The notes under the pieces were generated by a model. The model was not told the origin of the DNA. It searched no databases and was given only the letters and a program-made list of their open reading frames with translations. A program made the translations under genes and the position numbers. Positions 1 to 62,339 of a stretch of DNA of 64,000 nt are shown here, piece after piece. Numbering within the stretch: position 1 is the first letter of the stretch; each line of letters opens with the position of its first letter. Source of the stretch: a virus. Taxonomy: Duplodnaviria > Heunggongvirae > Uroviricota > Caudoviricetes > Herelleviridae. The stretch lies in IMG/VR virus record IMGVR_UViG_2706796076_000001. One strand, 5' to 3'.

Positions 1-909
1 TTAGCATATAGCTTTAATTTTAAATTCCAAAGTTTTATGGCTTGTCAAAAGTTTTATGAATCCTATGCAGTGGTTCAATATGATAAAGATGATAACGTAG
101 TATTTGTAGAGGATTATGAACAGCATAATGTTAGAGTAGCATTATATTTATTCCAAGATGATTATGCTAAAGCTAGAGATATGCTTATTCAATTAATGGA
201 ACAAACATTACAACCAGCTACACCTACTTATTTACATTCAGGTAAAGGTAATAGAGGGGAATTAAGTTCTTGTTATATTTTTGTTGTAGATGATACAATA
301 GAATCTATTAACTTTGTAGCTAACTCGGTACGAAATGCAAGTAAAAATAGTGGTGGAGTATCCGTAGAAGCGTCTAGAATAAGACCTAAAGGAGCTACAG
401 TACAAGGCAACCCTAACGCTAGTCAGGGAGTTATTCCTTTTGCTAAAAATATTGAACAAGGTGTAAGCCACTTTAACCAAGCAGGTATGCGTCAAGGTTC
501 AGCTGTAGTTTATTTAAATGTATTTCATCAAGATATTGAAGACTTTTTAAGTTCTAAGAAAATTAATGCTAGTGAGAAAGTTAGGTTAGATACTTTATCT
601 TTAGGTGTTACAATTCCTAATAAGTTCATGGAATTAGTAAAAGATGATAGACCATTATACACTTTTGATACTTCTAATTTATATGAAGTAACAGGTAAAC
701 ATTTAGATGAGATTGATTTTAATGAAGAGTATGAAAATTTAATTAAAAATGATAACATTAAGAAGAAAAAATTAAATGCAAGAGATTTAATGACTGATAT
801 TGCTAAAACTCAATTAGAGAGTGGTTATCCTTACGTTTTCTATATTGATAATGCAAATGATAATCACCCACTAAAAGGTATAGGTAAAGTTAGAGCTAGT
901 AATTTGTGT
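1..909 (+). CDS. nrdE: Class Ib ribonucleotide reductase alpha subunit NrdE, exon 1 (5' partial; joins 1862..2830)
   Basis: Frame is open from nt 1. The product ends ...GKVRASNLC at the conserved active-site SNLC loop, then an in-frame stop follows at 913. The downstream continuation TEIAQL... is found after a 0.95-kb insert. Confidence 0.85.
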
Positions 910-1861
910 AAATAAATGCACCTTTAACGAGTAATCGTTATCGAAAAATCTATCTAAAACGGGAAAGCCTAAGTCTTAAGGATAAGGTAATCCGTTGCTA
1001 AATATATAAATTGTAATCACTCTAGTAATAAAAGGAGTGATACTATGGAAAATAAAAAACCTGTAGGTGCTGTGTATATCACAACATGCTTAGTAAATGG
1101 TAAAAAATATATAGGAAAATTTCTTTATTCAAGAATAAACAGTTGGGAAAAATACTTAGGTTCTGGAACATACCTTAAACAAGATATTAAGAAGTATGGT
1201 AAAGAAAACTTTAAAAAAGAGATAGTTCAAGGCTATTACACTAAAGAAGAGTTGGAAAAAGCTGAAGAAGAATTAATTCTTAAAACTAATGCTGTATATG
1301 ACGATAGTTATTATAATGTAAAACTATCATCAGTAGGTGGGGATATTTTTACTACCAATCCACGAAAAGAAGAAATTAGACAAATGAGAAGAGAACAAAT
1401 GGGTGGAAAAGGTAATCACCAATACGGTAAAAAGAAAACAGATAAAATGATAAATTCAGTTAAAAAGGCTAACTCAAGAGCAATAGAAATTGATGGTATT
1501 GAATATCCAAGTACATCTAAAGCATCTGATACTTTAGGAATAGGTAAAACTACTATTGGGTATAGGTTAGACTCAGAAAATTATCCTAACTATAAGAGAT
1601 TAACACCTAGAAAAACAAAAAAGAAATGATTACAATTTATATTAAATGCCCAACGACTATCCGTAACCTACTTACATATAGTAAGGGGAGAAGGTTAGAG
1701 CCAAGTGGTCAAGGTATTGAGTAATAATCATATAAAACCTTGTTAAATCGAAAAGGTAGACTTCCCAAGTGGAAGAATGATATAGTCTGCTCATTTATGG
1801 AAACATAAAGAAGTTCATAAGAGAACTGGTAGTGATTAACGACCACTACTGAACATATAGG
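910..1861 (+). mobile_element. Group I intron in nrdE carrying a GIY-YIG homing endonuclease gene
   Basis: It interrupts NrdE between SNLC and TEI. The 5' exon ends in T (909) and the insert ends in G (1861). GC-richer, ORF-free structured RNA lies at 1630-1860. An internal free-standing HEG ORF is present. Confidence 0.75.
1045..1629 (+). CDS. GIY-YIG homing endonuclease (intron-encoded)
   Basis: The N-terminus GAVYITTCLVNGKKYIGK is a GIY-YIG motif. An SD AAAAGGAG lies upstream. The C-terminal half is basic. Confidence 0.85.
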   Translation: MENKKPVGAVYITTCLVNGKKYIGKFLYSRINSWEKYLGSGTYLKQDIKKYGKENFKKEIVQGYYTKEELEKAEEELILKTNAVYDDSYYNVKLSSVGGDIFTTNPRKEEIRQMRREQMGGKGNHQYGKKKTDKMINSVKKANSRAIEIDGIEYPSTSKASDTLGIGKTTIGYRLDSENYPNYKRLTPRKTKKK

Positions 1862-2830
1862 ACAGAAATAGCACAATTACAAGAAGTATCAGATATACAT
1901 CCTTATATGGAATCTGATAAAGATAATATCGGTAGGGATGTTATTTGTACACTAGCATCATTAAACTTAGTAAATGTTGTAGAGAAAGGTTTACTTGAAG
2001 AGTCAGTTGATATGGGTATGCGTTCTTTGTCAAATGTTACTGATATGATGTATCTACCATTTTTACCTAGTGTAAATAAAGCTAATGATGAATTACATGC
2101 AGTAGGTTTAGGTTCACTTAATTTACATGGACTCTTAGCTAAAAATATGATTAGTTATGGTTCATTAGAAGCTTTAGACCTCATTAACAGCTTGTATAGT
2201 GCAATAAACTATAACTCTATTAAATCTAGTATGCACATTGCTAAAGAAAAAGGTAAGTCATTTAAAGGGTTTGAAAAATCCGAGTATGCTAATGGTAATT
2301 ATTTCAAACCATACATTAATAAATCTAATGAACCAACAACACAAAAAGCTAAAGAAGTTTTAGAAAAAGTGTATATCCCTAGTCAAGATGATTGGGAACA
2401 ATTAGCTAAAGATGTTAAAAGATACGGTTTATATAATGCTTACAGAAGAGCGGAAGCTCCAACACAATCTATTTCATATGTTCAAAATGCTACAGCAAGC
2501 ATTATGCCTGTACCTAGTGCGATTGAGAATAGACAGTATGGAGATATGGAAACATATTACCCTATGCCTTTCTTGAGTCCTATTACTCAATTCTTTTACG
2601 ATAATGAAACAGCATATAAATTAGATAATAAAAAAATCATAAATACAGGTGCTGTGGTTCAGAAGCATACAGACCAAGCAGTTTCTACAATTTTATATGT
2701 TGAATCAGAAATACCTACAAATAAACTAGTAAGTTTATACTACTATGCATGGTCTAAAGGATTAAAATCATTATATTATACACGTTCACGTAAGTTAGAG
2801 GTAATTGAATGTGAAACATGTTCGGTATAA
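1862..2830 (+). CDS. nrdE: NrdE exon 2 (C-terminal part)
   Basis: TEIAQLQEVSDIHPY..DNIGRDVICTLASLNL matches the region after the active-site Cys of NrdA/NrdE (E. coli LEIALP...EIALCTLSAFNL). A C-terminal CETC pair is present. Confidence 0.85.
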   Translation, partial: TEIAQLQEVSDIHPYMESDKDNIGRDVICTLASLNLVNVVEKGLLEESVDMGMRSLSNVTDMMYLPFLPSVNKANDELHAVGLGSLNLHGLLAKNMISYGSLEALDLINSLYSAINYNSIKSSMHIAKEKGKSFKGFEKSEYANGNYFKPYINKSNEPTTQKAKEVLEKVYIPSQDDWEQLAKDVKRYGLYNAYRRAEAPTQSISYVQNATASIMPVPSAIENRQYGDMETYYPMPFLSPITQFFYDNETAYKLDNKKIINTGAVVQKHTDQAVSTILYVESEIPTNKLVSLYYYAWSKGLKSLYYTRSRKLEVIECETCSV

Positions 2831-2844
2831 AGGAAGGAAAACAA

Positions 2845-3891
2845 ATGTCACTAAGAAAAGCAGTAGAATTAAATAATAAAGAAGATAAATTAGAACCAAT
2901 TAATTGGAATAAACAATCAGACGGTATGTCTGAGATTTATTGGAACCAAGGTGTTAATCAAATCTGGTTTCCTGAAGAGTTCGATATTTCCAGGGATTTA
3001 AATTCTTGGAATGAACTCTCTGACATTGAGAGAGAAACTTATAAAAAAGTTTTAGCAGGGTTAACTGGTTTAGATGCTAAACAAGGCGGAGAAGGTATGA
3101 ACCTTATTTCATATCAAGAACCTAGAAGACATTATAAAGCTGTTTTTGGATATATGGGTATGATGGAGTTTGTACATGAACGTTCATACTCTCATATATT
3201 TACAACTATTTTAAATAATAAAGAAACTAATTATTTATTAGATGAGTGGGTAAGAGAAGAAAGCCACTTAATTAAAAAAGCTCAATTTATTGGTTATTTT
3301 TACAAAAAGTTACTAAACCCAGAGCCTACTACTTTTGATAGATATATGGCAAAAGTTGCCAGTGCGTTTTTAGAGAGTGCCTTATTCTACTCAGGGTTCT
3401 ATTACCCTTTACTTTTAGCAGGTCAAGGTCGTATGACACAATCAGGAGCTGTTATATTTAAAATAACTCAAGATGAATCATATCATGGTTCAGCAGTAGG
3501 GTTGACAGCACAATATGATTATGAACAATTAACAGATACGGAAAAAGAAAAAGCTGATAAATTAATGTATAAATTACTTGACATATTATATGATAATGAA
3601 GTATCTTATACACATATGTTATATGATGACTTAGGATTAACTGAAGATGTAATTAGATATGTAGAATATAATTTTAATAGAGCCTTATCTAATTTAGGTA
3701 AAGAAGATTATTTTCATCCAGAACCTTTTAATGCTATTGTTAATAATCAAATTGATGTAGGTAGAATGAGACACGTAGATTTCTTTAGTGGGAAAGCAGA
3801 TTATGAAAAATCTACTAATATTAAAGATATTAAAGATGATGATTTTAATATCGAAGATAATGAAAGTGATTTAGTAGATAAATTTTTATGA
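2845..3891 (+). CDS. nrdF: Class Ib ribonucleotide reductase beta subunit NrdF
   Basis: EFVHERSYSHIF metal/radical site motif. SD AAAGGAAGGA before ATG 2845; the ORF track start at 2818 overlaps the nrdE stop. Confidence 0.85.
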   Translation: MSLRKAVELNNKEDKLEPINWNKQSDGMSEIYWNQGVNQIWFPEEFDISRDLNSWNELSDIERETYKKVLAGLTGLDAKQGGEGMNLISYQEPRRHYKAVFGYMGMMEFVHERSYSHIFTTILNNKETNYLLDEWVREESHLIKKAQFIGYFYKKLLNPEPTTFDRYMAKVASAFLESALFYSGFYYPLLLAGQGRMTQSGAVIFKITQDESYHGSAVGLTAQYDYEQLTDTEKEKADKLMYKLLDILYDNEVSYTHMLYDDLGLTEDVIRYVEYNFNRALSNLGKEDYFHPEPFNAIVNNQIDVGRMRHVDFFSGKADYEKSTNIKDIKDDDFNIEDNESDLVDKFL

Positions 3892-3930
3892 TAACCTTTT
3901 TATAGTATAACATAAGAAAGGAAAGTTATT

Positions 3931-4242
3931 ATGGATAGAAAAGAAGCATTAGTACTTATGAATAAAGCAGAGACTTTGTTTAAAAAGTATGATGATTTCA
4001 AATATGTAGAAGACTTATACGACCCTATTAAAATACTTAATCAGAAAGAAGATACTAGACCTGATTCAGAGTCTACTTCTTTTCAATTAGAATTTAGTTA
4101 TAAGAGTACTAATTATATTTTAGGGTATAATAACAGTGCACTCACAGTTATAGATAAGTCACAAGGATTAGAACATCCAATAGTTTATAATGTAAATAGC
4201 TTTGAAGAAGTAATTAATTTATTAGAAAAGGATGAAGAATAA
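3931..4242 (+). CDS. hypothetical protein (103 aa)
   Basis: ORF with SD GAAAGGAAAG, lying between nrdF and the thioredoxin-like gene. Confidence 0.55.
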   Translation: MDRKEALVLMNKAETLFKKYDDFKYVEDLYDPIKILNQKEDTRPDSESTSFQLEFSYKSTNYILGYNNSALTVIDKSQGLEHPIVYNVNSFEEVINLLEKDEE

Positions 4243-4244
4243 AT

Positions 4245-4568
4245 ATGGAAAAATTAGAAAGCTTAGTAGACTTAAATACAAAAATCTCATACAATGATGA
4301 CGCTATTGTATTAATTTCACAAGACGGATGTGCTAAATGTGAGATTTTAAAAAATATCTTACCTGAATTTGAAAAGACTGGAGATATTACAAAACCTATT
4401 TTCTCATTAAATTTAGATGATGAAGATGTGGATAGAGAGTTAGCTATCGAGAAATTTAATGTTATGAGTACTCCTTTGTTACTTTGTTTTAAAAACGGAG
4501 AACTTAAAGTTACTTTAGAAGGTGACGATGTAAACCCTATGAAATTTAAAGATTTAGAAAATATTTAA
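4245..4568 (+). CDS. thioredoxin/glutaredoxin-like redox protein (CxxC), likely RNR electron donor
   Basis: A CAKC motif sits in a thioredoxin-fold-sized 107-aa protein directly downstream of nrdEF. Confidence 0.6.
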   Translation: MEKLESLVDLNTKISYNDDAIVLISQDGCAKCEILKNILPEFEKTGDITKPIFSLNLDDEDVDRELAIEKFNVMSTPLLLCFKNGELKVTLEGDDVNPMKFKDLENI

Positions 4569-4633
4569 ATTTAATTTTGATAAATCTCACTTTTATGGTA
4601 TAATTAATTTATACAAAGAAGTGAGGTTTTTTT

Positions 4634-5359
4634 ATGGCAAAAAATAAAACACTAACTATATATAATAGTGATAGATATTTCAATATTCATACTAAAGATA
4701 AAAAAGAAATAAGTAAATCAATAAAAATAACACATGCAAATGAAGAGGATATAGAAAAAAATCTAGATAAGGTAGCTACTAAGTCTAGTAGATATATACT
4801 CAAAGATGATAATACTTATATGTTATTTAATGAGAAGTATAATAACGATAGGCTTATTGAGAAAGTATGTAAACATGGAGGCGGTGTTTACTATTATACA
4901 GATTCTATTATACCTTATTATGTATTTAAAGACTTATCTACAAACCAAAATTCAGCAGTTGTTTATAAAATGCGTGAGCGTTTTTCAGATAAAGAAATTG
5001 ATAATATAGCATTATCCTTTATGGGAACTAAAGTAATAATTGATATTTCAATAGTACTTCCTTATGTAAATCCTTATGAAATTATTAGAAATTTACATCC
5101 AATTAAAACTAATGTTGATGAGGTTCACTTAACATTCCCTAAGATAAGAACAATTGAAGAAAAACAAAAAAAATTTTATGATTTTGATGGTGAAGGTTAC
5201 GTACTAAAACCTGAATATAAAATTGATTTTGCTGAAAGAATTAGAGTATCTCTATCTGTATGGAAAATGTATATCTATATCCTTACTAGTGAAGAAGACC
5301 ACCAAGATGTTACAAATGAGATAACTAAATTAAAAAAACAAAAGAATGTTAAACTGTAG
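4634..5359 (+). CDS. hypothetical protein (241 aa)
   Basis: ORF with SD GAAGTGAGG. Confidence 0.55.
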   Translation: MAKNKTLTIYNSDRYFNIHTKDKKEISKSIKITHANEEDIEKNLDKVATKSSRYILKDDNTYMLFNEKYNNDRLIEKVCKHGGGVYYYTDSIIPYYVFKDLSTNQNSAVVYKMRERFSDKEIDNIALSFMGTKVIIDISIVLPYVNPYEIIRNLHPIKTNVDEVHLTFPKIRTIEEKQKKFYDFDGEGYVLKPEYKIDFAERIRVSLSVWKMYIYILTSEEDHQDVTNEITKLKKQKNVKL

Positions 5360-5367
5360 GTATAATA

Positions 5368-5667
5368 ATGACAGTAAATAGAAAAGATATAGCTAGAAGA
5401 ATATCAGAGGAAACAGGATACTACATACAGGATATAGAAGAAATATTAGAAGCAGAATCAAAAGCTATCGTTGATTTCATTGACGAAGGGCAAGAAAAAA
5501 TAAAAAATCATAAATTATATCAAATAGAAGTAATTGAAAAACCAGAAAAAAGAGCATGGAATGGATTAGATAAGAAGTATTATACTATACCTAGTAAGAA
5601 AGTACTTAAGATTAAACCTATGAAATACTTAGAAGAAGCAAATGAAAGACTTAGAGAGACAGATTAA
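5368..5667 (+). CDS. HU/IHF-like DNA-binding protein (putative)
   Basis: A 99-aa protein whose N-terminus MTVNRKDIARRISEETG...AIVDFI.. resembles HU/IHF family N-terminal helices. The basic arm is ...KRAWNGLDKKYYTIPSKKVLKIKP. Confidence 0.45.
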   Translation: MTVNRKDIARRISEETGYYIQDIEEILEAESKAIVDFIDEGQEKIKNHKLYQIEVIEKPEKRAWNGLDKKYYTIPSKKVLKIKPMKYLEEANERLRETD

Positions 5668-5687
5668 AAAATTTGTCTCTTTTTTTA
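5654..5687 (+). terminator. rho-independent terminator
   Basis: Hairpin AGAGACAGATT/AATTTGTCTCT followed by T7. Confidence 0.55.
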
Positions 5688-5716
5688 TTGACATTAAAGA
5701 TATTCTATGGTATCAT
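5688..5716 (+). promoter_or_regulatory. sigma70-like promoter of the DNA polymerase gene
   Basis: TTGACA, a 17-nt spacer, then TATCAT with an upstream TG (TGgTATCAT). Confidence 0.55.
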
Positions 5717-5747
5717 ATATTTAAACAAGTGTAAGGAGAAGATAAAT

Positions 5748-7976
5748 ATGAAAGCTTTAATTTTATACGACCACATAAGAGAAGAACATTTTAAAGTTAC
5801 AGATGATAATAAAACAAGATTAAATCTTTTTAATACTCAAAATGGTAAAACTTTAAAAATGTTATTAGAGAGATGTTCAGGTTTAGTAAGAGATAATTCT
5901 AGAAAAGATTATGATATTGATTTTGTGTATAAGGCTATACCAACACCTGTAACAAATAATTACGGTAAGATTGTTAAATACCAAGATGTAAAGCAAACAG
6001 AAGTTAAACCTTATTACTCAGAATTAACTAAACGAATTATTGATAATAATTATGATATTATTGTTCCTTTAGGTAAACTAGGTATTAAATTTTTACTAAA
6101 CGTTACAAAATTAGGTTCAGTAAGAGGTGTACCTCACAAAATAACATTAAGTACTGAAAATACAAGTAAAGGTGTTTGGGTATTACCTACTTATAGTATT
6201 GAATACACTAATGTTAATAAAAATGCTGAACGTCATGTAGTTACAGACCTTAATTTATTAGGTAAATTTGTAAAAAATGGAGAAGAAGCCTTTAAACCTA
6301 AAAAAGTGTCATATGAACTTGTAACAGATATTGAAAGAGTAAGAGAGATTTTTACTAAAGAAGTAAAAAAAGATAATAATGATGGTATAGATATAACAGC
6401 TTGGGATACAGAGACTAATTCACTAAAACCAGATAGAGCAGGAAGTAAAGTTTTAGTAGTATCTTTAAGTTGGAAAAACGGACAAGGTGTCACAATACCT
6501 ATTTATAAATCTGATTTTAATTGGAAAAACGGACAAAAAGATATTGATGAGATACTAAGTTACTTAAGAGAGTGGTTAGCTGATAAAGAGGATATAAAAG
6601 TAGGTCATAACATTAAATATGATATAAAATTCCTAATGAGTACACTAGGATTTAACACATTTGAAAATAATCAAGACACACTTGTAGGCTGGTATTTAGC
6701 TGTAACACAAGAAACCACAGATTCTAAACGCCTGTCTGACTTAGCATATGAGGTTACAGATATGGGTGGGTATGACACACCGTTAGAAGAATTTAAAAAA
6801 TGGTTTAGTAGAAAATTACTTAAATTCTTGTCAGAAAAAATGTCTACTATTATTAAAGATAACAAGAGTATTGCAAAAAAAGAACATAATATTAAAGCAA
6901 CAGAATATAAAAATTGGTTATCTGAAAACATTAGTGTGGATAAAGAAGTAGAGCTTGATAAATATGAGCAAAAAACAGAAATGAATAGTACTGATAAGCA
7001 ATATATTCAATTAGGTTTACACCCAGAACGATTAACAAAAACAATGTTAATGGGTGATTCAGAGTTTGAAGAGGTAGCTAAGCTTTCGGATGAGTATATG
7101 TCTTTAAGTGATGAAGGTAAAGAATATACACTTAAAACAGCTTTAGAATTAATTAATAGGTTTAAAAAACATACAGATGTATATAATGAAGTTGATGGTG
7201 GTAAGTTTAATTATGATTGGATTCCTTTAGAACTAATGCACCCTTATGCTAGTGGTGACGTTGATGTATGTCGTAGAATTTATTCTAATATACTAGAAAA
7301 ATTAAAAGACCAACAACGACCTAAAGCAATAAAGTTATGGCAACAAGATTATCCAAGGTTAGATAGAACCCTAGCAAGAATAGAGAGTAATGGTCTATAT
7401 GCTGATTTAGATTACATGGAAAAGAATGACAAAGCCTATGAATTAGAATTAACTAAAATTGAAAATAAAATAAGAGAACATTGGGCGGTAAAAGAATTTG
7501 AAGAAGAAAAATATAACTTATATGAACTAGGTTTAGAAGAGTTTAGTAAACCTAAAAAAGAAAGAGACCCAGAAATAGAGAAGTACAGAAATAAGTATAA
7601 AGATGATGGGTGGAAATTTAATATAGGGTCAGGAGACCATAAAAGTGAACTATTGTATAAAATATTAGGTTTTGAATTACCTTATGACCAGAACTACGTT
7701 AAAGCTACCTCTTTTGAGAAAAAGAAAGAGCAAGATATTAGTTGGGAAGACTATAAAACAGATACTAAAGCTCTAGGATATATATTATCTGATTTAGAAG
7801 TAACAGAAGATAACAAAGAACTAATAGAAGACTTATTATACTACGCCTCTATACGAACAAAACGAAACTCATTTACTCATAAGCTTCCTAGAATGGTTAA
7901 TAAAAACACACAAACACTACATGGTAGTTTCTCATCAACAACTACAAGTACAGGAAGATTAGCCAGTAGTAACCCT
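5748..7976 (+). CDS. DNA polymerase I-like (family A) with 3'-5' exonuclease, exon 1 (joins 9074..10063)
   Basis: SD GTAAGGAGAAG before ATG 5748. An exo motif ITAWDTETNSL is present. The exon ends ...TGRLASSNP immediately before the conserved NLQNIP motif, followed by an in-frame stop. Confidence 0.85.
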
Positions 7977-9073
7977 TAAATTGGGGTTGTAAAACTTTGT
8001 TAACTGCGGGGAGAAACTTGTTAGGTCTTAACTACTAACTTATAATGGAAACATATATAAGGGCAAACAGTAATGTGTTTGGTACAGTAAAAAGGTTAAG
8101 AATAAAGAGAATCCGCAACCAAGCCCCTGAAAGTGTATGGAAGTATGGGGAAGGCTCAACGACTAGGTGTTGAGGTAGCACAACCAATACACACCCACGA
8201 AAGCAAGGATATTATTTCTGTGGTAGGGAATAGTAAGGAAGAGTATATGAAAGAAGTTTGGAAAGATTATGATGATAAATATAAAGTAAGTAATACAGGT
8301 AGAGTAATAAATAAAATTACTAAGCATGAATTAAAACCATGGATTATTAATTCAGGGTACAAACAAGTTACAGTTACTGAGGGTAACATATTAGTACATA
8401 GATTAGTAGCAAAGCTTTTTATACCTAACAATAATCCTAATCTAAATGTTGTTAACCACATCGATAATAATAGATTGAATAACCACGTAAACAACCTAGA
8501 ATGGGTAGATTATAGGGGCAATACCTTACACTCTGCTAAACAAGGTAGACAAAATACGTATAGTGCTAGGGAACAACTTAAAAAGGTATCTAATAAAGCA
8601 GTATATCAAAAAGATATGGAAGGTAATATTGTTAAGGTGTGGGATTCACCCACTCAAGCACAAAGAGAAACTGGTGGGTATTTTAGCCCATCACAAATAA
8701 GTCAAGTAATTTCTGGAAGACATAAATCACATAAAGGTTATAAGTGGGAGTATGTAAATAAAGAGTCTAAAAGAAGTAAAAATATGAAAATTGATGTATT
8801 TGACTTAGACGGTAATCTATTGTATACTAAGTATAGTATGAATAAGGTGATGAAACTACTCAACATGAATAATCATAAGACATTGAGAGATAAATTAAGA
8901 AAAACAGATGACTTTGTAGAGTATAAAGGATATAAATTTAGAAACAGTAAATAAACAATAAACCTACCACAGAAATGATATATGATATAGTCTGTCCTAT
9001 ATAGAGATATATAGCTATTGTTTAAATGACAATAGATACAATATAATAAATAAATTATATTGTACACAAGTAA
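7977..9073 (+). mobile_element. Group I intron in the DNA polymerase gene carrying an HNH homing endonuclease gene (exact 3' boundary uncertain)
   Basis: The coding sequence resumes exactly at NLQNIVAHTSN...DYSALELRV (Pol A motif A) at 9074. GC-rich structured RNA lies at 7980-8130. The inferred intron ends in A rather than the canonical G. Confidence 0.65.
8247..8954 (+). CDS. HNH homing endonuclease (intron-encoded), NUMOD4-like N-terminus
   Basis: KVSNTGRVINK is a NUMOD4-like motif. VHRLVAKLFIPNNNPNLNVVNHIDNNRLNNHVNNLEW is an HNH motif. SD AAGGAAG before ATG 8247; the upstream extension to 8133 is probably untranslated intron RNA. Confidence 0.8.
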   Translation: MKEVWKDYDDKYKVSNTGRVINKITKHELKPWIINSGYKQVTVTEGNILVHRLVAKLFIPNNNPNLNVVNHIDNNRLNNHVNNLEWVDYRGNTLHSAKQGRQNTYSAREQLKKVSNKAVYQKDMEGNIVKVWDSPTQAQRETGGYFSPSQISQVISGRHKSHKGYKWEYVNKESKRSKNMKIDVFDLDGNLLYTKYSMNKVMKLLNMNNHKTLRDKLRKTDDFVEYKGYKFRNSK

Positions 9074-45201: not shown

Positions 45202-45645
45202 ATGACTATTGATATTAAAGAATTAATAAATAAAAACAAAAAGGAAGAATTAGAACATACAAAAGAACTATTATCTCTATTTGTGTCAGATTTAGATTTT
45301 AGTATACGTGAAACGTTGAAAAATAATGATTACAGCTATAGTTTTACTAATATACTTCGTGCAACTATTAATGATAAGCATTTAATTCAGAAGTATAAAG
45401 CATTAGTAGAGAGATTACATTTGTTTAACAAGTCTGATATAAGTACTATTATGTCTATAAACATAGATGGTGCAACTTTTGAAATTGAAGATTTCTTTTC
45501 AAATTACGATAACGATATTGCAGATGCCTTTTACCTTTTCTTTAAAGTAAAACATCATGAATATAATATAGAACATATAAGTATTAGTTTCCTAGAATAT
45601 AGAAATAAACTATCAGAACCTAAGATTGGTATGTATTTAAGCTAA
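45202..45645 (+). CDS. hypothetical protein (147 aa)
   Basis: SD AAAGGAGAA. Confidence 0.5.
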   Translation: MTIDIKELINKNKKEELEHTKELLSLFVSDLDFSIRETLKNNDYSYSFTNILRATINDKHLIQKYKALVERLHLFNKSDISTIMSINIDGATFEIEDFFSNYDNDIADAFYLFFKVKHHEYNIEHISISFLEYRNKLSEPKIGMYLS

Positions 45646-45658
45646 AGGAGAGGTGGTA

Positions 45659-46051
45659 ATGGAATTTAAAGTGTTTGACGCTTTAGTAGATAAGGTTAAA
45701 GAGTTAGGTAATATACAAACTGAAACAATGCGTGAACAAGGATTTAAAATTAAATATCGAGATTGCCAGCTAGGTGACATAATCCCCTCTGGGATTAATG
45801 TCCTCTATAAAGGTGAGGTTATTGCATTTATCACACATGGTCATTATGCAGGTGTTCTTAGTCATAAAATGAATACTGATTATGAAAAATATAAACATTG
45901 TGAAACGTTAATGGATTTTTTACATTATTGCCTAAAAGAACATTTAGATACTCAAAAAAGAATTGAAAAACGTGAGAAAGAAAGAGATAGAAAAGAAAGA
46001 ATAGAAGCTAGAGATAGAGAAATAAAATTGAATAACTTTATAGATAGTTAA
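45659..46051 (+). CDS. hypothetical protein (~130 aa) with basic coiled-coil C-terminus
   Basis: SD AAAGGAGAGGTGG before ATG 45659. Last plus-strand gene before the strand switch. Confidence 0.5.
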   Translation: MEFKVFDALVDKVKELGNIQTETMREQGFKIKYRDCQLGDIIPSGINVLYKGEVIAFITHGHYAGVLSHKMNTDYEKYKHCETLMDFLHYCLKEHLDTQKRIEKREKERDRKERIEARDREIKLNNFIDS

Positions 46052-46387
46052 AAAAGGAGCTGTTAAGATAACGCCAAGAATATTCCCTAACTAGTATTGG
46101 GTTAATATATAATACAGGAGAAGAAAAATGGTTTGATACTGCAAATGAAGGTGTAGAAGATAATAGTTATCAGAGAGTTAACTATAACGAAGAATATAAT
46201 ATATTAGAAGTCATTGTACGTAAATCAAATAATAAATAAAATTAATAATAACAATAAAAAATAACATAAGTAAAGCCCTTTATATATGAGTATAAACAAT
46301 ATAGAGGATTTATTAATAAGTAATATAATAATAAAGAAATAATAGGTAGTAAGTAATAGAGGTAGTAATAAAGTAATATGTAAGAGT

Positions 46388-46996
46388 AAGAATAAAAGGA
46401 AATAAGAAAAGAAAAGAGAAACTAATTACTTATTAATATATAAATAAAACTCCTATTCTTTGTATTATTACTCTTTGATTATTAAAAAGGAGGGATAAAG
46501 TATACAGATATATATATATATATATAGATAAAAAAATAGAAGAAATCTATATAGTATAAATAAGGAAAAATTAGTAAAAGTATAGAGAAAAAAGAAAAAA
46601 GAAAAAAGATAAACCAATTACCCTAGGACTTTTTTGTCTGTCCTATTCGTTGTCTTGACCTGTTTTGACGTTACCTGTTTAAGAATAAAAGGAAATAAGA
46701 AAAGAAAAGAGAAACTTAATTAACTTATTAATATATAAATAAAACTCCTATTCTTTGTATTATTACTCTTTGATTATTAAAAAGGAGGGATAAAGTATAC
46801 AGATATATATATATATATATAGATAAAAAAATAGAAGAAATCTATATAGTATAAATAAGGAAAAATTAGTAAAAGTATAGAAGAAAAAAGAAAAAAGAAA
46901 AAAGAAAAAAGAAAAAAGAAAAAAGTAAACCAATTACCCTAGGACTTTTTTGTCTGTCCTATTCGTTGTCTTGACCTGTTTTGACGTTACCTGTTT
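46388..46996. repeat. Perfectly abutting tandem duplication of a ~300-bp unit (copy 1 46388-46680, copy 2 46681-46996) with variable internal (TA)n and (GAAAAAA)n microsatellites
   Basis: The copies are nearly identical apart from (TA) 9 vs 10, GAAAAAA x3 vs x6 and small indels. Each unit carries TTAAAAAGGAGGGATAAAG and ends TTGTCTTGACCTGTTTTGACGTTACCTGTTT. It sits in a 1.1-kb ORF-free region. Confidence 0.9.
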
Positions 46997-47071
46997 ACTA
47001 TAATTTATTTATATTACTACTACAATATACTTAAACATTACATTACTATTGTATACAACTTAATAATAAAC

Positions 47072-47108
47072 AAAAAAAAATACCGCTTCTATATTACTGA
47101 AGCGGTAC
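47072..47108 (-). terminator. rho-independent terminator for the minus-strand gene block (TACCGCTTC-loop-GAAGCGGTA)
   Basis: On the plus strand A9 precedes the hairpin, which reads as hairpin + U-run on the minus strand. It lies downstream of gene 47182..47448(-). Confidence 0.65.
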
Positions 47109-47181
47109 TCAACTATTCTGATATACTATTCAATTGTTCTAATATATAGTTAAACTATGCTAATGTATAGTCCATGTAGTA

Positions 47182-47448
47182 CTAACTGTATTCTATCTTA
47201 ATATTATAGTTACCTTTTTTACTTACTAGATTAAATCCAAACTCTTCTATTTCTTCTAGTGTTATAGGCTCAGAGAAATATAATTCAGGCTTTTTTGAGT
47301 TAGTATCAAGTAACATGACATTATATATGCTTTCATAATTACTGGTATCTTCTTTAATTATAAAGCCATACATATCTAAATCACTATCATATAATAAATC
47401 TCCATCTTGTAATGGTATAGTACTTTTCTTTTTTACTACTTCAATCAT
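47182..47448 (-). CDS. hypothetical protein (88 aa), paralog of 47467..47727
   Basis: Shared motifs MIE...GDL..D......G..IK.D.......IYNV.LLDT with the adjacent gene. Confidence 0.55.
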   Translation of the reverse strand: MIEVVKKKSTIPLQDGDLLYDSDLDMYGFIIKEDTSNYESIYNVMLLDTNSKKPELYFSEPITLEEIEEFGFNLVSKKGNYNIKIEYS

Positions 47449-47466
47449 TATTTATACCTCCTTATA

Positions 47467-47727
47467 CTAATACTCTATATTAAGTTTATAGTTATTTTTC
47501 TTTTGTATTACAGTAAAGTCTTTTGATATATCATATAATGTTTTAGGTTCTAGGTATAGTAAACTGTGTTCTTCATTTATTGTATCTAGTATTAGTACAT
47601 TATAAATACTTGAAGTACTATTAAAGTCTTGTTTAATTACAATACCTATATCACCTGTATAATCGTCTTGCACTAAATCCCCTACATTAACACTTTCTTC
47701 TCCTGTAACTTTATTAAGTTCAATCAT
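47467..47727 (-). CDS. hypothetical protein (86 aa), tandem paralog
   Basis: Paralog of the previous gene. Confidence 0.55.
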   Translation of the reverse strand: MIELNKVTGEESVNVGDLVQDDYTGDIGIVIKQDFNSTSSIYNVLILDTINEEHSLLYLEPKTLYDISKDFTVIQKKNNYKLNIEY

Positions 47728-47802
47728 TATGTAACTCCTCCTTATTTATTATACTATAAGTATATCATAGAAAAGACCTCCTGTCAAGAGGTCTAGTAAT
47801 TA

Positions 47803-48141
47803 TTATTCAAAATATTTATTTATTTTTTCAAGTGTGTTTTCTCTTTCTTCTTCCGCTTCAATGTACTTAAAATAGTATACATCAATTAAATCATAGATAT
47901 TATCTTGAGAGAATAAAACTTTTTCAAATTCATTTCTTTCTTCCTCTTTACTTAAATCTACTACTTCTACTTGAATATTATCTCTGTATAATAGCAATAT
48001 ACCTTTATTAAAACTATTATAAGTTACACTATAGTGTTCACTTACTAGGTATGTTATTGACGTAACTCTATTTGCTTCTTTAGTTCCTTCATTTCCTTTA
48101 AGTTGAATGTATTGTACAAAATCATCTAATGTAAATTCCAT
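47803..48141 (-). CDS. hypothetical protein (112 aa), member of a small paralog family with 49044 and 49503
   Basis: MEF..DDF..YI.. N-terminus and ...IYDLIDVYY motif, shared with the (+) genes 49044 and 49503. Confidence 0.5.
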   Translation of the reverse strand: MEFTLDDFVQYIQLKGNEGTKEANRVTSITYLVSEHYSVTYNSFNKGILLLYRDNIQVEVVDLSKEEERNEFEKVLFSQDNIYDLIDVYYFKYIEAEEERENTLEKINKYFE

Positions 48142-48282
48142 ATTATTCCTCCTTATTGATTATACTACTATTATAGCATAAGTAATATTAGTTGTCAAGT
48201 AAATTATTTTATTAAAAGGTATTGACACTTGATAAATAATAGTGTAGTATATAGATATACTTAATAAAAGGAGAAGATATTA

Positions 48283-48957
48283 ATGAAAAAAATTACACAA
48301 GAAGAATTAAACAATAAAATTGAATTGCATAAAGAATGGTTAGAAGATGATAACAAAGGGGAAAAGTTAGAATTAAATGGTTATAACTTAAGAAATTTAG
48401 ATTTAAGTAATTCTGATTTAAGGTACTCTAGTTTAAGTTGTTCTATTTTAAGTAATGTAGATTTAAGTTACTCTGATTTAAGTTTTTCTACTTTAAAAGA
48501 TGCTGATTTAGTAAAGATGGATTTAACAAAGGCTATTATAAGTTTTTCTAATTTAGAAAATATTGACTTAAATAGTGTTAATTTGAAAAATGCTAACTTA
48601 TATGGTGCTAATTTAGATAGTTCTTATTTAAGATGTGTTGATTTTAAAAATGCTAGTTTAAAGAATGCTAATTTAGATAATGCTCATTTAGAAAATTGTA
48701 ATCTAGAAGATGTTAATTTATCTCAAGCTAATACCCGATGTATTGAAGGACTAGAAGTATATTCAATTGACAATATAGGTACATTTGCAGGTAAAGTAAC
48801 GTATTTACCAGAGCAAGATAAAGTATTTGCTGGTTGCTGGAAAGGTAATTTAGAAAAGTTTTTAGAAAAAGGATTAGAAATGAATAAAGATAATGAGAAA
48901 GAAAAAAGGAATATTTTTAATGCTTATCAATTCTTTTTAGGTACTACAATTGATTAA
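48283..48957 (+). CDS. pentapeptide-repeat protein (Qnr/MfpA-like right-handed quadrilateral beta-helix) with C-terminal extra domain
   Basis: About 25 consecutive A(D/N)LxX pentapeptides: NLRNL DLSNS DLRYS SLSCS ILSNV DLSYS DLSFS TLKDA DLVKM DLTKA ... NLKNA NLYGA NLDSS ... The SD is AAAAGGAGAAG. Confidence 0.8.
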   Translation: MKKITQEELNNKIELHKEWLEDDNKGEKLELNGYNLRNLDLSNSDLRYSSLSCSILSNVDLSYSDLSFSTLKDADLVKMDLTKAIISFSNLENIDLNSVNLKNANLYGANLDSSYLRCVDFKNASLKNANLDNAHLENCNLEDVNLSQANTRCIEGLEVYSIDNIGTFAGKVTYLPEQDKVFAGCWKGNLEKFLEKGLEMNKDNEKEKRNIFNAYQFFLGTTID

Positions 48958-52491: not shown

Positions 52492-52773
52492 ATGAAAAAG
52501 AATTTTAAATATGAAGAAACAGTGACAGTAAATGGAAACGAGATTACAGTGTTCAGAATTGAAAATGATAATAACGGAAACCCTAGATATGTAGTACACT
52601 TTAGCGACCTGGGTATTAGCCTTTGGGATTATGACGATATTAACAAGCTATACGGTTTTAAAAAGTACACTGCTAAATGGTTTGGTGGTGGTGTAGTATT
52701 CCAAAGCTACAACATTGAAGAAACTATCAAATGGGCACTAGAAACAGTTAAAGAAAAAGAAGCGGTTAAATAA
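52492..52773 (+). CDS. hypothetical protein (93 aa)
   Basis: RBS AAAGGATTTGATTTAAATG. Its stop lies in the GAAGCGGT/ACCGCTTC hairpin at 52762-52786. Confidence 0.5.
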   Translation: MKKNFKYEETVTVNGNEITVFRIENDNNGNPRYVVHFSDLGISLWDYDDINKLYGFKKYTAKWFGGGVVFQSYNIEETIKWALETVKEKEAVK

Positions 52774-53251: not shown

Positions 53252-53445
53252 GGGAAGCTTTTTTTAATATAAAAATAAAATTAAATAACTTTTTTATATA
53301 AAAAGGTTTAGGGCTGGTCTTTTCCCCAACCTATCCGAGGTTTATAGAGGTTATCAGGCTGGGCTCCTCTTTCTTTCTATATATAGAATAACAAATTCTA
53401 CGGTATTTGTAAAGGGGTTTTACAAATTTTTTTTATTTTTTTTCT
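53252..53445 (+). ncRNA. candidate small non-coding RNA
   Basis: No ATG-initiated ORF was found. The GC-richer core is GGGCTGGTCTTTTCCCCAACCTATCCGAGG...CAGGCTGGGCTCCTC. It ends at AAAGGGGTTTTACAAATTTTTTTTATTTTTTTT. Confidence 0.3.
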
Positions 53446-53467
53446 TAAAAAAATTTGCATTTAGGGG

Positions 53468-53497
53468 TTGCAATTGTTTTTAATGTGTAGTAATATA
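53468..53497 (+). promoter_or_regulatory. cassette promoter (GGGGTTGCAA-17-TAATAT) followed by 5' hairpin TTGTAAGGG..CCTTACAA (53502-53535)
   Basis: Seen directly. Confidence 0.45.
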
Positions 53498-56981: not shown

Positions 56982-57318
56982 TTCCCTTTGTATTTTTTTG
57001 TTTTTAAAAATATAAAATAAAAAAATTTTTATAAATAAATATAAAAAGGAATAGTTAAAGAGTGAATTAATATATCTATGATATTGTATAATTTTTTTAT
57101 ATATACGCCCCGTTATAAATTGCCATAAACAAGGGGTGTAATAATACCCTAGTATACCTACCTCAGGTTCCCTATAAACCACCTTAAAAATAAACTATAA
57201 TCTACAAAAGTCAACAAATAAATAATAAATTTTTATACGTATACAATACACCCTTCCCCGTTAATTTTTGTTATATTATACTATACCTAGGATAAAAAAT
57301 AATAAGGAGAAATATTAA

Positions 57319-61884: not shown

Positions 61885-62339
61885 CCCTTATCTTATATTT
61901 ATCTTACACTAGATAATATAACATTAATTACATAGAAAAAACCTGCAATATATACTATATAATAGTATACTCAATCTTATGTTCCTAGGTTACATTGATT
62001 AAAGTATACCTATATAGCAGGGACTTATCATAGTTTCCCTATGATAAGTAATTGCAGGTTTAAGGTCAATTCTATTAACGTTAATGTAGTCCTTTTCTAC
62101 AACATGGTAGATAGGTCAATAGAGTACGGACAATGAAGAAGTTACATGTCAGAACCAACACATATTTACAAAGCCAATATGCAAGCAACTTACTGTACTC
62201 TCTAGTAAGTCAAACCTTTTAAGGTTTTAGGTAAAAACTGCACCCTGTGGTTCACATTATTAAGAGGTGTTAGGATACTGATAATTTAATTATAACATAT
62301 ATTTGTTATTTTTGCAAGTTTATTTTAAAAATAATTATA

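Follow-up and report, generated by a model that had tools for sequence, protein, structure and literature searches.

A strand-switch gap in Staphylococcus phage phiIPLA-C1C as the probable junction of unit genome and long terminal repeat in a Sepunavirus

What occupies the 1.1-kb gap between two facing gene arrays of a Twort-like staphylococcal phage, and why does it hold two abutting copies of a ~300-nt unit? The question is raised by positions 46052-47181 of IMG/VR virus record IMGVR_UViG_2706796076_000001, of which a stretch of 64,000 nucleotides was analysed (hereafter the window, to which all positions refer). Over 46000-47250 there is complete (100%) identity with Staphylococcus phage vB_SepM_phiIPLA-C1C (KP027447 / NC_028962; hereafter C1C), a phage of Staphylococcus epidermidis classified in Herelleviridae, Twortvirinae, Sepunavirus, and subtracting 61,208 from a KP027447 coordinate gives the window coordinate. 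Each of the 25 records with a match comes from a staphylococcal Twort-like myophage. A first-pass annotation, made from the letters alone, had offered a genome physical end or terminal-repeat boundary recognised by the terminase, a replication origin and a transcriptional insulator among the possible roles. Our analysis supports the first of these: the region is probably where the right end of the unit genome meets a long terminal repeat (LTR), and thus the left packaging cut site, a reading drawn from sequence comparison. It is carried by the points at which records of relatives open, by a step in conservation and composition, by a boundary resembling that of phage K ~10.2 kb downstream, and by the Tre (terminal-repeat-encoded) and early genes that lie between the two sites.

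The left boundary is marked by a 23-mer, CCAATTACCC/TAGGACTTTTTTG (here and below, a slash outside brackets marks the candidate cut), whose exact sequence occurs twice in the window against 0 occurrences expected by chance. The upstream copy (46614-46636, + strand; candidate cut 46623/46624) is identified by the exact 23-mer and by the ends of relatives' records, and the downstream copy (46930-46952, + strand; candidate cut 46939/46940, the putative LTR start) by the 23-mer, by record openings and by the conservation step. The records of the relatives Terranova, Quidividi and Twillingate begin TAGGA(C/T)TTTTTTGTCTG and end ...ACC(C/T), so that all three open inside the repeated unit at exactly the ACCC/TAGGAC of C1C, and their upstream sequences differ. 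When 15 genomes were lined up at ACCC/TAGGA, mean pairwise identity rose from 0.21-0.76 over the 240 nt before this site to 0.89-1.00 over the 240 nt after it, the first 80 of these reaching 0.97-1.00; the downstream block is common to all 15 aligned genomes, and upstream little is kept beyond the ACC(C/T) at the cut itself. Composition changes at the same nucleotide, the purine fraction dropping from 0.80-0.88 to 0.30. We infer from these patterns that ACCC/TAGGAC would be a physical end of the DNA, and that the nearly invariant ~240 nt forming the non-coding start of the LTR (46940-47181, + strand) are the best candidate for a packaging or end-recognition signal read by the terminase. The first 57 nt of this block from 46940 are pyrimidine-rich, contain TTGTCT twice and TTGAC twice, and are also present in the upstream copy of the unit.

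A second boundary was recognised by multiple and local alignment with phage K, in whose record the LTR is annotated at 1-8486 and whose LTR ends read ...TAAGTACCTG/GGAATTC... and ...GGTCTACC/CAGGTACTTA..., the latter being the counterpart of the predicted right boundary in C1C, TACCCTAGTATACCTACC/TCAGGTTCCCTAT (57145-57175, + strand; cut near 57162/57163). C1C 57100-57200 aligns with the K right boundary through the common blocks TATTGTATAATTTTTTTATATATACG, ATACCC-TA, CTACC-(T)CAGGT and AAAAGTCAACA; the best local alignment scores 44, compared with 23.7 +/- 2.9 for shuffles (0 of 500 reach it), and places the boundary at the same offset in both phages. Similarity is lost at 57175 in 7 of 18 distinct relatives, so that the conservation step at ACCC/TAGGA is matched, several kb away, by a conservation break at a second boundary. 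The distance from 46940 to the right boundary is 10,223 nt (10,539 nt from the upstream motif copy), and the equivalent spacing is ~11.0-11.4 kb in Terranova, Quidividi and Twillingate. Very early genes of the Tre and host-takeover kind lie inside this interval: a homologue of TreK (terminal-repeat-encoded protein K; GenBank AJA42325.1) at 52492-52773 on the + strand, and the corresponding module of phage SEP1, whose genes SEP1_131 to SEP1_155 map between the two putative boundaries. Within that module gp142-154 (TreK, TreO, TreN-like) are very early, being expressed within 5 min (PMC11265418). The large terminases of Sepunaviruses cluster with those of direct-terminal-repeat packagers such as A511 (PMC10244729).

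Around the right boundary, two further observations were made. Past 57175 the relatives form two classes with unrelated sequences, the first having a 475-aa gene on the + strand and the second a gene on the - strand, and AAAAGTCAACA motifs, of which K, Terranova and Quidividi have several occurrences, follow the putative boundary. A second copy of the left boundary motif was considered as the right end and rejected, as TTACCCTAGG, allowing up to 2 mismatches, is no more frequent than chance predicts; TACCCTAG shows a mild excess (5 occurrences, 1.2 expected), but two of the five stem from the duplication.

If the locus is the junction of unit genome and LTR, it would therefore be a terminase cut site: replicated concatemers would be cut at ACCC/TAGGAC to give the left end of packaged, non-permuted DNA. 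The proposed layout would then run from the last + strand gene through a gene remnant and a terminator to a purine-rich, weakly constrained spacer with slippage-prone microsatellites, reach ACCC/TAGGAC, and continue through ~240 nt of invariant sequence (holding a terminator and 21-bp repeats) to the first LTR genes. The LTR itself would extend to about 57162, giving a length of ~10.2 kb, and would carry the Tre and host-takeover early genes.

Several observations weigh against the junction. The left LTR end of K and that of C1C are not significantly similar (global z = 0.8; 19 of 500 shuffles equal the local score). It is therefore the record openings and the step in conservation and composition, not homology, that support the left boundary; we accordingly rejected left-end homology to K, and regard the strings common to both, TACAATA(T)ACTTAAAC and CTGAAGCGGT, as anecdotal. 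In K-like phages, 12-bp inverted repeats, TAAGTACCTGGG and CCCAGGTACTTA, mark the limits of the LTR and set it apart from unique DNA (PMC6022877); unlike K, C1C has no exact copy of this inverted repeat, and the left and right motifs of Sepunaviruses (TACCCTAGG against the reverse complement AACCTGAGG) agree at just 6 of 9 positions. Folds of both strands at the boundary are no better than those of shuffles (z about 0), and a special structure at the cut site was rejected on these grounds. The paper announcing Terranova, Quidividi and Twillingate contains no statement of how the start of each record was chosen and no terminus analysis (PMC6597688). Finally, the conservation downstream of the boundary could merely reflect a slowly evolving LTR as opposed to a packaging signal.

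Some of these points would also suit a locus that is a non-functional spacer between convergent units, shaped by gene deletion and slippage, at which records were opened by convention and with the true ends elsewhere. Both the lack of a terminus analysis in the announcement paper and the lack of significant similarity to the K left LTR end count in its favour, as does the content of the gap. Positions 46093-46240 (+ strand) hold a 5'-truncated gene remnant, the last 48 codons and stop of a 137-aa gene, whose translation, SIGLIYNTGEEKWFDTANEGVEDNSYQRVNYNEEYNILEVIVRKSNNK followed by the stop, is identical to the C-terminus of Quidividi_206. The gene is intact in Quidividi (gp206) and BE25 (0225); in C1C, phage 110 and BE05 its 5' part and the gene before it have been lost. 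Part of the gap is therefore a deletion scar; the remnant, still in frame, is the sole part of the region similar to more distant Twortvirinae (Alsa phages, PG-2021_27). The description of the 1.1 kb as free of open reading frames (ORFs) consequently stands for real genes but not for this remnant, nor for two - strand ORFs (49 and 56 aa, TTG start) that read across the microsatellites. The translations of these two are poly-Phe/Leu of low complexity, and as spurious products of the microsatellites they were rejected as hidden genes within the units.

Terminators on both sides count for a spacer as they do for the junction, the boundary being bracketed by a convergent pair. On the + strand, 46269-46314 folds into a hairpin (-10.6 kcal/mol, z = -2.9) that has a U-rich tail and is the likely terminator of the + array; its stem is imperfect in C1C and perfect in relatives, which have CCTCTATAT...ATATAGAGG at the matching place. 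On the - strand, the Rho-independent terminator of the - strand genes (47078-47110; -16.4 kcal/mol, z = -4.7) has a 12-bp stem followed by U9, was matched in stability by 0 of 200 shuffles and has a counterpart annotated as a terminator in the SEP1 record. Against a mere spacer stand the opening of three divergent genomes at an identical nucleotide, at the sharpest conservation and composition step of the region, which is unlikely to be arbitrary; the K-homologous right boundary at a sensible LTR distance; and the Tre genes between both sites. We therefore consider a spacer unlikely.

The loop of the - strand terminator differs in one relative. In Twillingate (~139-165, against window 47083-47107) it is inverted, reading ACCGCTTC-AGTAATATA-GAAGCGGT with an unchanged stem, compared with ACCGCTTC-TATATTACT-GAAGCGGT in C1C and other relatives, so that Twillingate represents a hairpin-loop flip.

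The convergent terminators also bear on the insulator proposed in the first-pass annotation: a dedicated transcriptional insulator finds no support, the region merely lying between them. A replication origin, in which DNA would unwind at the (TA)n tract and an initiator would bind the repeats, could draw on the AT-rich composition of the region with its (TA)9 tract, on its non-coding nature and on three periodic 21-bp repeats, TCAAYTRTTCTRATATAYWRT, at 47109-47171 (period 21, 3.0 copies in Tandem Repeats Finder (TRF); conserved across Sepunaviruses). Set against this, the cumulative GC skew is flat and tracks gene orientation, its sole reversal falling near 58-60 kb where gene direction changes; (TA)n varies in length from 4 to 12 and the tract is wholly replaced in other lineages; and there is no adjacent initiator gene, the flanking proteins having no Pfam match. 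The unit itself lacks iterons, and the combination of iterons, unwinding element, initiator and skew inflection that would mark an origin was not found at the locus. An origin is thus highly improbable.

Within the junction layout, the 21-bp repeats (two helical turns each) occupy the interval ~170-230 nt inside the LTR, with the - strand terminator on one side and the first LTR gene on the other. They are a possible protein-binding array, whose ligand might be a regulator or the terminase small subunit; in phage K, TTAATCTA motifs recur at a comparable position.

The junction reading leaves the duplication itself to be explained. As first described, copy 1 (46388-46680, 293 nt) and copy 2 (46681-46996, 316 nt), both on the + strand, lie head-to-tail with no spacer, an arrangement seen alike in the sequence, by the repeat finder, by BLAST and by alignment. 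Their similarity is far above chance: a gapped alignment has 0 substitutions over 293 aligned positions. Two 1-nt insertions are private to copy 2, at 36 and 42 nt from where it begins (CTAATTAC to CTTAATTAAC), and at both sites copy 1 agrees with the single copy of relatives. The remaining differences fall 72-95 nt from the end of copy 1, in an A-rich tract that has a net gain of 21 nt in copy 2 and small differences at the edges of its GAAAAAA tract. The reported change from three to six GAAAAAA units was correct, with (GAAAAAA)3 at 46587-46607 in copy 1 and (GAAAAAA)6, three units more, at 46883-46924 in copy 2 (+ strand; sequence reading and TRF, with alignment for copy 2). That of (TA) from 9 to 10 was an error, as sequence reading, TRF and alignment give an identical (TA)9 in copy 1 (46508-46525) and copy 2 (46803-46820), TRF returning identical 23-nt arrays with the register constant at 295 nt.

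Other details of the first description fared well for the most part. Each copy contains AAAAAGGAGGGATAAAG, the Shine-Dalgarno-like AAAAAGGAGGG has no start codon after it, and each copy ends in ...TTGTCTTGACCTGTTTTGACGTTACC(TGTTT). Thymine predominates in the final 57 nt of each unit (T 0.51, A 0.11). Extreme A-richness, which had been claimed for both flanks, applies to the left (A = 0.49-0.52) but not to the right (A 0.40, T 0.37). Relative to the boundary, the duplication covers -236/-259 to +57; the unit thus crosses it, so the duplication also doubles the candidate cut site, placing the cut sites of the two copies 316 bp apart. The duplication junction, which the slash marks here, has only T/A microhomology.

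We compared copy number across 17 other Sepunavirus sequences (12 distinct GenBank genomes, three IMG/VR contigs and two metagenome contigs). All 17 have a single copy of the unit or its lineage-specific replacement, compared with two copies in C1C, and the 26-mer spanning the duplication junction, GACGTTACCTGTTT/AAGAATAAAAGG with the slash at that junction, is absent from both IMG/VR and the metagenome collection. The first-pass annotation had named single-copy relatives as the sign of a simple assembly duplication; their occurrence implies that the duplication may be a join artefact or a private, very recent event, and therefore not a functional design. The heterogeneity that had been predicted for the microsatellites does exist among isolates: across genomes with the C1C-type unit, (TA)n ranges from 4 to 12 and (GAAAAAA)n from 1 to 6, with 1-3 in the relatives, and in other lineages the segment is replaced by different (AAT)n, (TA)n and A-run tracts.

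That the duplication is an assembly artefact, in which contig ends overlapping by ~300 nt at the LTR coverage step were concatenated untrimmed and hidden when the record was re-opened near the terminase gene, has in our estimate almost an even chance. The KP027447 record starts at base 1 of the coding sequence upstream of, and next to, the large terminase gene (TerL), so its assembly had been closed into a circle and cut open again. No other record has the duplication, and its indel-only differences lie near where the contigs would have ended, 36-42 nt into copy 2 and 72-95 nt before copy 1 stops; the rest of the C1C sequence has no indel noise. An untrimmed 127-bp overlap is moreover found within about 220 nt of the same boundary in the record of BE04 (MT596501), whose last 127 nt repeat its first 127 nt and whose first base lies 95 nt inside the putative LTR; this repeat is an untrimmed k-mer overlap of a circular-looking assembly. 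Three points speak against an artefact. An overlap of 293-316 nt requires an overlap-type assembler or a manual join, three 7-nt units (21 nt) are large for a sequencing error, and there is no comparable duplication at the right LTR boundary.

A genuine and recent duplication, in which slippage during replication or illegitimate recombination close to the LTR boundary left two cut sites 316 bp apart, we place somewhat below an even chance. Simple de Bruijn overlaps are exact, the BE04 127-mer being an example, but the C1C copies are not identical, and reads must have contained the novel junction. Every lineage has a microsatellite hotspot here, and Kayvirus 812 and K offer a precedent, a copy-number-variable tandem repeat at exactly this genomic position (PMC6445280), of which the C1C duplication would be a Sepunavirus counterpart with a larger unit. 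Against it, the duplication is absent from 17 relatives, including phage 110 and BE05, which are 94-95% identical across the region, and from two large contig collections. The copies have no substitutions and share an unchanged (TA)9; as this tract is the most variable in relatives, they have essentially no independent history, yet two private 1-nt insertions occur in non-repetitive sequence. Such an indel-only spectrum is unnatural given that C1C and a close metagenomic relative differ elsewhere by 45 substitutions and 0 indels over 7.4 kb. If the duplication were real, both ACCC/TAGGAC copies could be cut by the terminase to produce two classes of virion end, with LTRs of 10,223 and 10,539 bp, and the junction repeats found in two genera would be a by-product of LTR regeneration during Herelleviridae packaging; we think this unlikely, but if it is true the junction offers a natural handle for mapping the terminase signal.

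One of the contigs resembling C1C is itself anomalous. IMGVR_UViG_3300006456_000001 spans 226,865 bp, ~1.6x a Sepunavirus unit genome, and over a readable 7.4 kb it matches C1C at 99.4% identity; the assembly is probably chimeric or concatenated.

The genes around the gap were placed as the first-pass annotation had described, the plus-strand array ending and minus-strand genes beginning here. The + strand array stops at 46051 with a gene at 45653-46051 (ORF list; GenBank AJA42314.1; no Pfam or PHROG match), and three - strand genes (47182-48141) end toward the gap, an arrangement that is therefore convergent. The first LTR gene, at 47182-47448 on the - strand (ORF list, annotation and PHROG; phrog_9237, function unassigned), and the gene at 47467-47727 are adjacent small paralogues, both phrog_9237 and the first two of the LTR, whose similarity at the DNA level was also detected by the repeat finder (family D4). 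No Pfam domain was found in the flanking proteins, which match only PHROGs of unknown function.

Searches for other signals gave little. Promoters inside the repeat were rejected, as there are no strong sigma-70-like sites and the total count equals the shuffle expectation; strong sites of this kind lie outside the unit at 47759-47787 and 48170-48198, both on the - strand. A non-coding RNA was likewise rejected, an Rfam scan of 45500-47700 having given only a chance match to Plasmodium RNase P (28.6 bits, compared with a 100-bit gathering score), and nothing was found in the whole window by an Rfam scan at gathering thresholds or by ARAGORN. Elsewhere in the window, a tandem periodicity of 15/30/45 bp at 48388-48496 lies within a pentapeptide-repeat protein gene (48283-48957) and is an expected coding repeat. 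Two non-coding stretches at 53300-53480 and 61940-62300 are visibly more G+C-rich and self-complementary (e.g. ggtttagggctggtcttttccccaacctatccgagg... and gcagggacttatcatagtttccctatgataagtaattgcagg...); they match no Rfam family or tRNA, and may be uncharacterised phage RNAs.

Sepunaviruses are therapy candidates against Staphylococcus epidermidis, and their deposited genomes are opened at arbitrary points. The Sepunavirus papers we examined, including the announcement PMC6597688, report no termini and do not define terminal repeats. The left boundary at ACCC/TAGGA, together with the right boundary near CCTACC/TCAGG, provides a testable map of a ~10-kb repeat, gives a packaged genome of ~151 kb for C1C and bounds the very early gene module. 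The candidate cuts are placed to about +/-3 nt on the left and +/-2 nt on the right. The C1C reference record, which doubles as RefSeq NC_028962, is marked by the comparison as holding a probable error or a private variant, and the invariant 240 nt inside the boundary offer a concrete candidate for the packaging signal of the group. Some practical value lies in correcting and orienting Sepunavirus genome records, and there is a modest chance that the locus will help to pin down the packaging signal. Read as the junction, the locus is an ordinary instance of a known feature, a Twort-like LTR boundary with an unstable, repeat-prone junction, and current understanding of how such phages work is unchanged by it.

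Site-specific cutting by terminase is known to yield direct terminal repeats, short in T7 and long in T5, SPO1 and Listeria phage A511. C1C resembles packagers of the A511 type in its fixed non-permuted ends, which are predicted here, and in the clustering of its terminase with theirs (PMC10244729); as expected for a recognition signal, a conserved non-coding block adjoins the candidate cut. With BE04 it shares a head-to-tail repeat beside the LTR boundary, where a circular-looking assembly closed. Unlike the BE04 overlap, which is exact and lies at the record ends, the C1C copies differ by indels and their repeat is internal; as an artefact it requires re-opening after joining, which KP027447 underwent.

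The closest comparison is with phage K and its relative 812. C1C belongs to the same subfamily as K, Twortvirinae, and its genome would follow a like logic, with non-permuted DNA and a multi-kb LTR of Tre and host-takeover early genes; in C1C, too, the right-boundary region is recognisably homologous and the LTR starts with a pyrimidine-rich non-coding stretch. The predicted LTR is longer, at ~10.2 kb compared with 7.7-8.5 kb in K-like phages. The unit genome of phage 812 ends, just before the right LTR, in a 35-bp tandem repeat present in 2 to >20 copies within and between stocks and absent in mutant 812h1 (PMC6445280), and K has about 2.5 copies of the 35-bp repeat, ending in the boundary motif. 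The tandem repeat of C1C likewise sits where unit genome meets LTR: head-to-tail repeats (46388-46680, 46681-46996) lie directly upstream of the LTR start, though the unit crosses the boundary by 57 nt. Its unit, in contrast, is ~300 nt long and present twice, extends those 57 nt into the LTR and is duplicated in one record only. A relation to the 35-bp TATTAYTACTACTAAGTACCTTTGTTATGTACTAC was not found, as alignments with the K junction and LTR start are at chance and the 35-bp unit is not visible in either C1C copy. The Sepunavirus motifs are TTACCC/TAGGAC on the left and CCTACC/TCAGGT(T/A)CC on the right, the latter related to that of K. With the K-type motifs absent from C1C, the locus would therefore be a counterpart, in a sister genus, of the Twort-like LTR boundary known from K and 812, and not a member of the K-type motif class.

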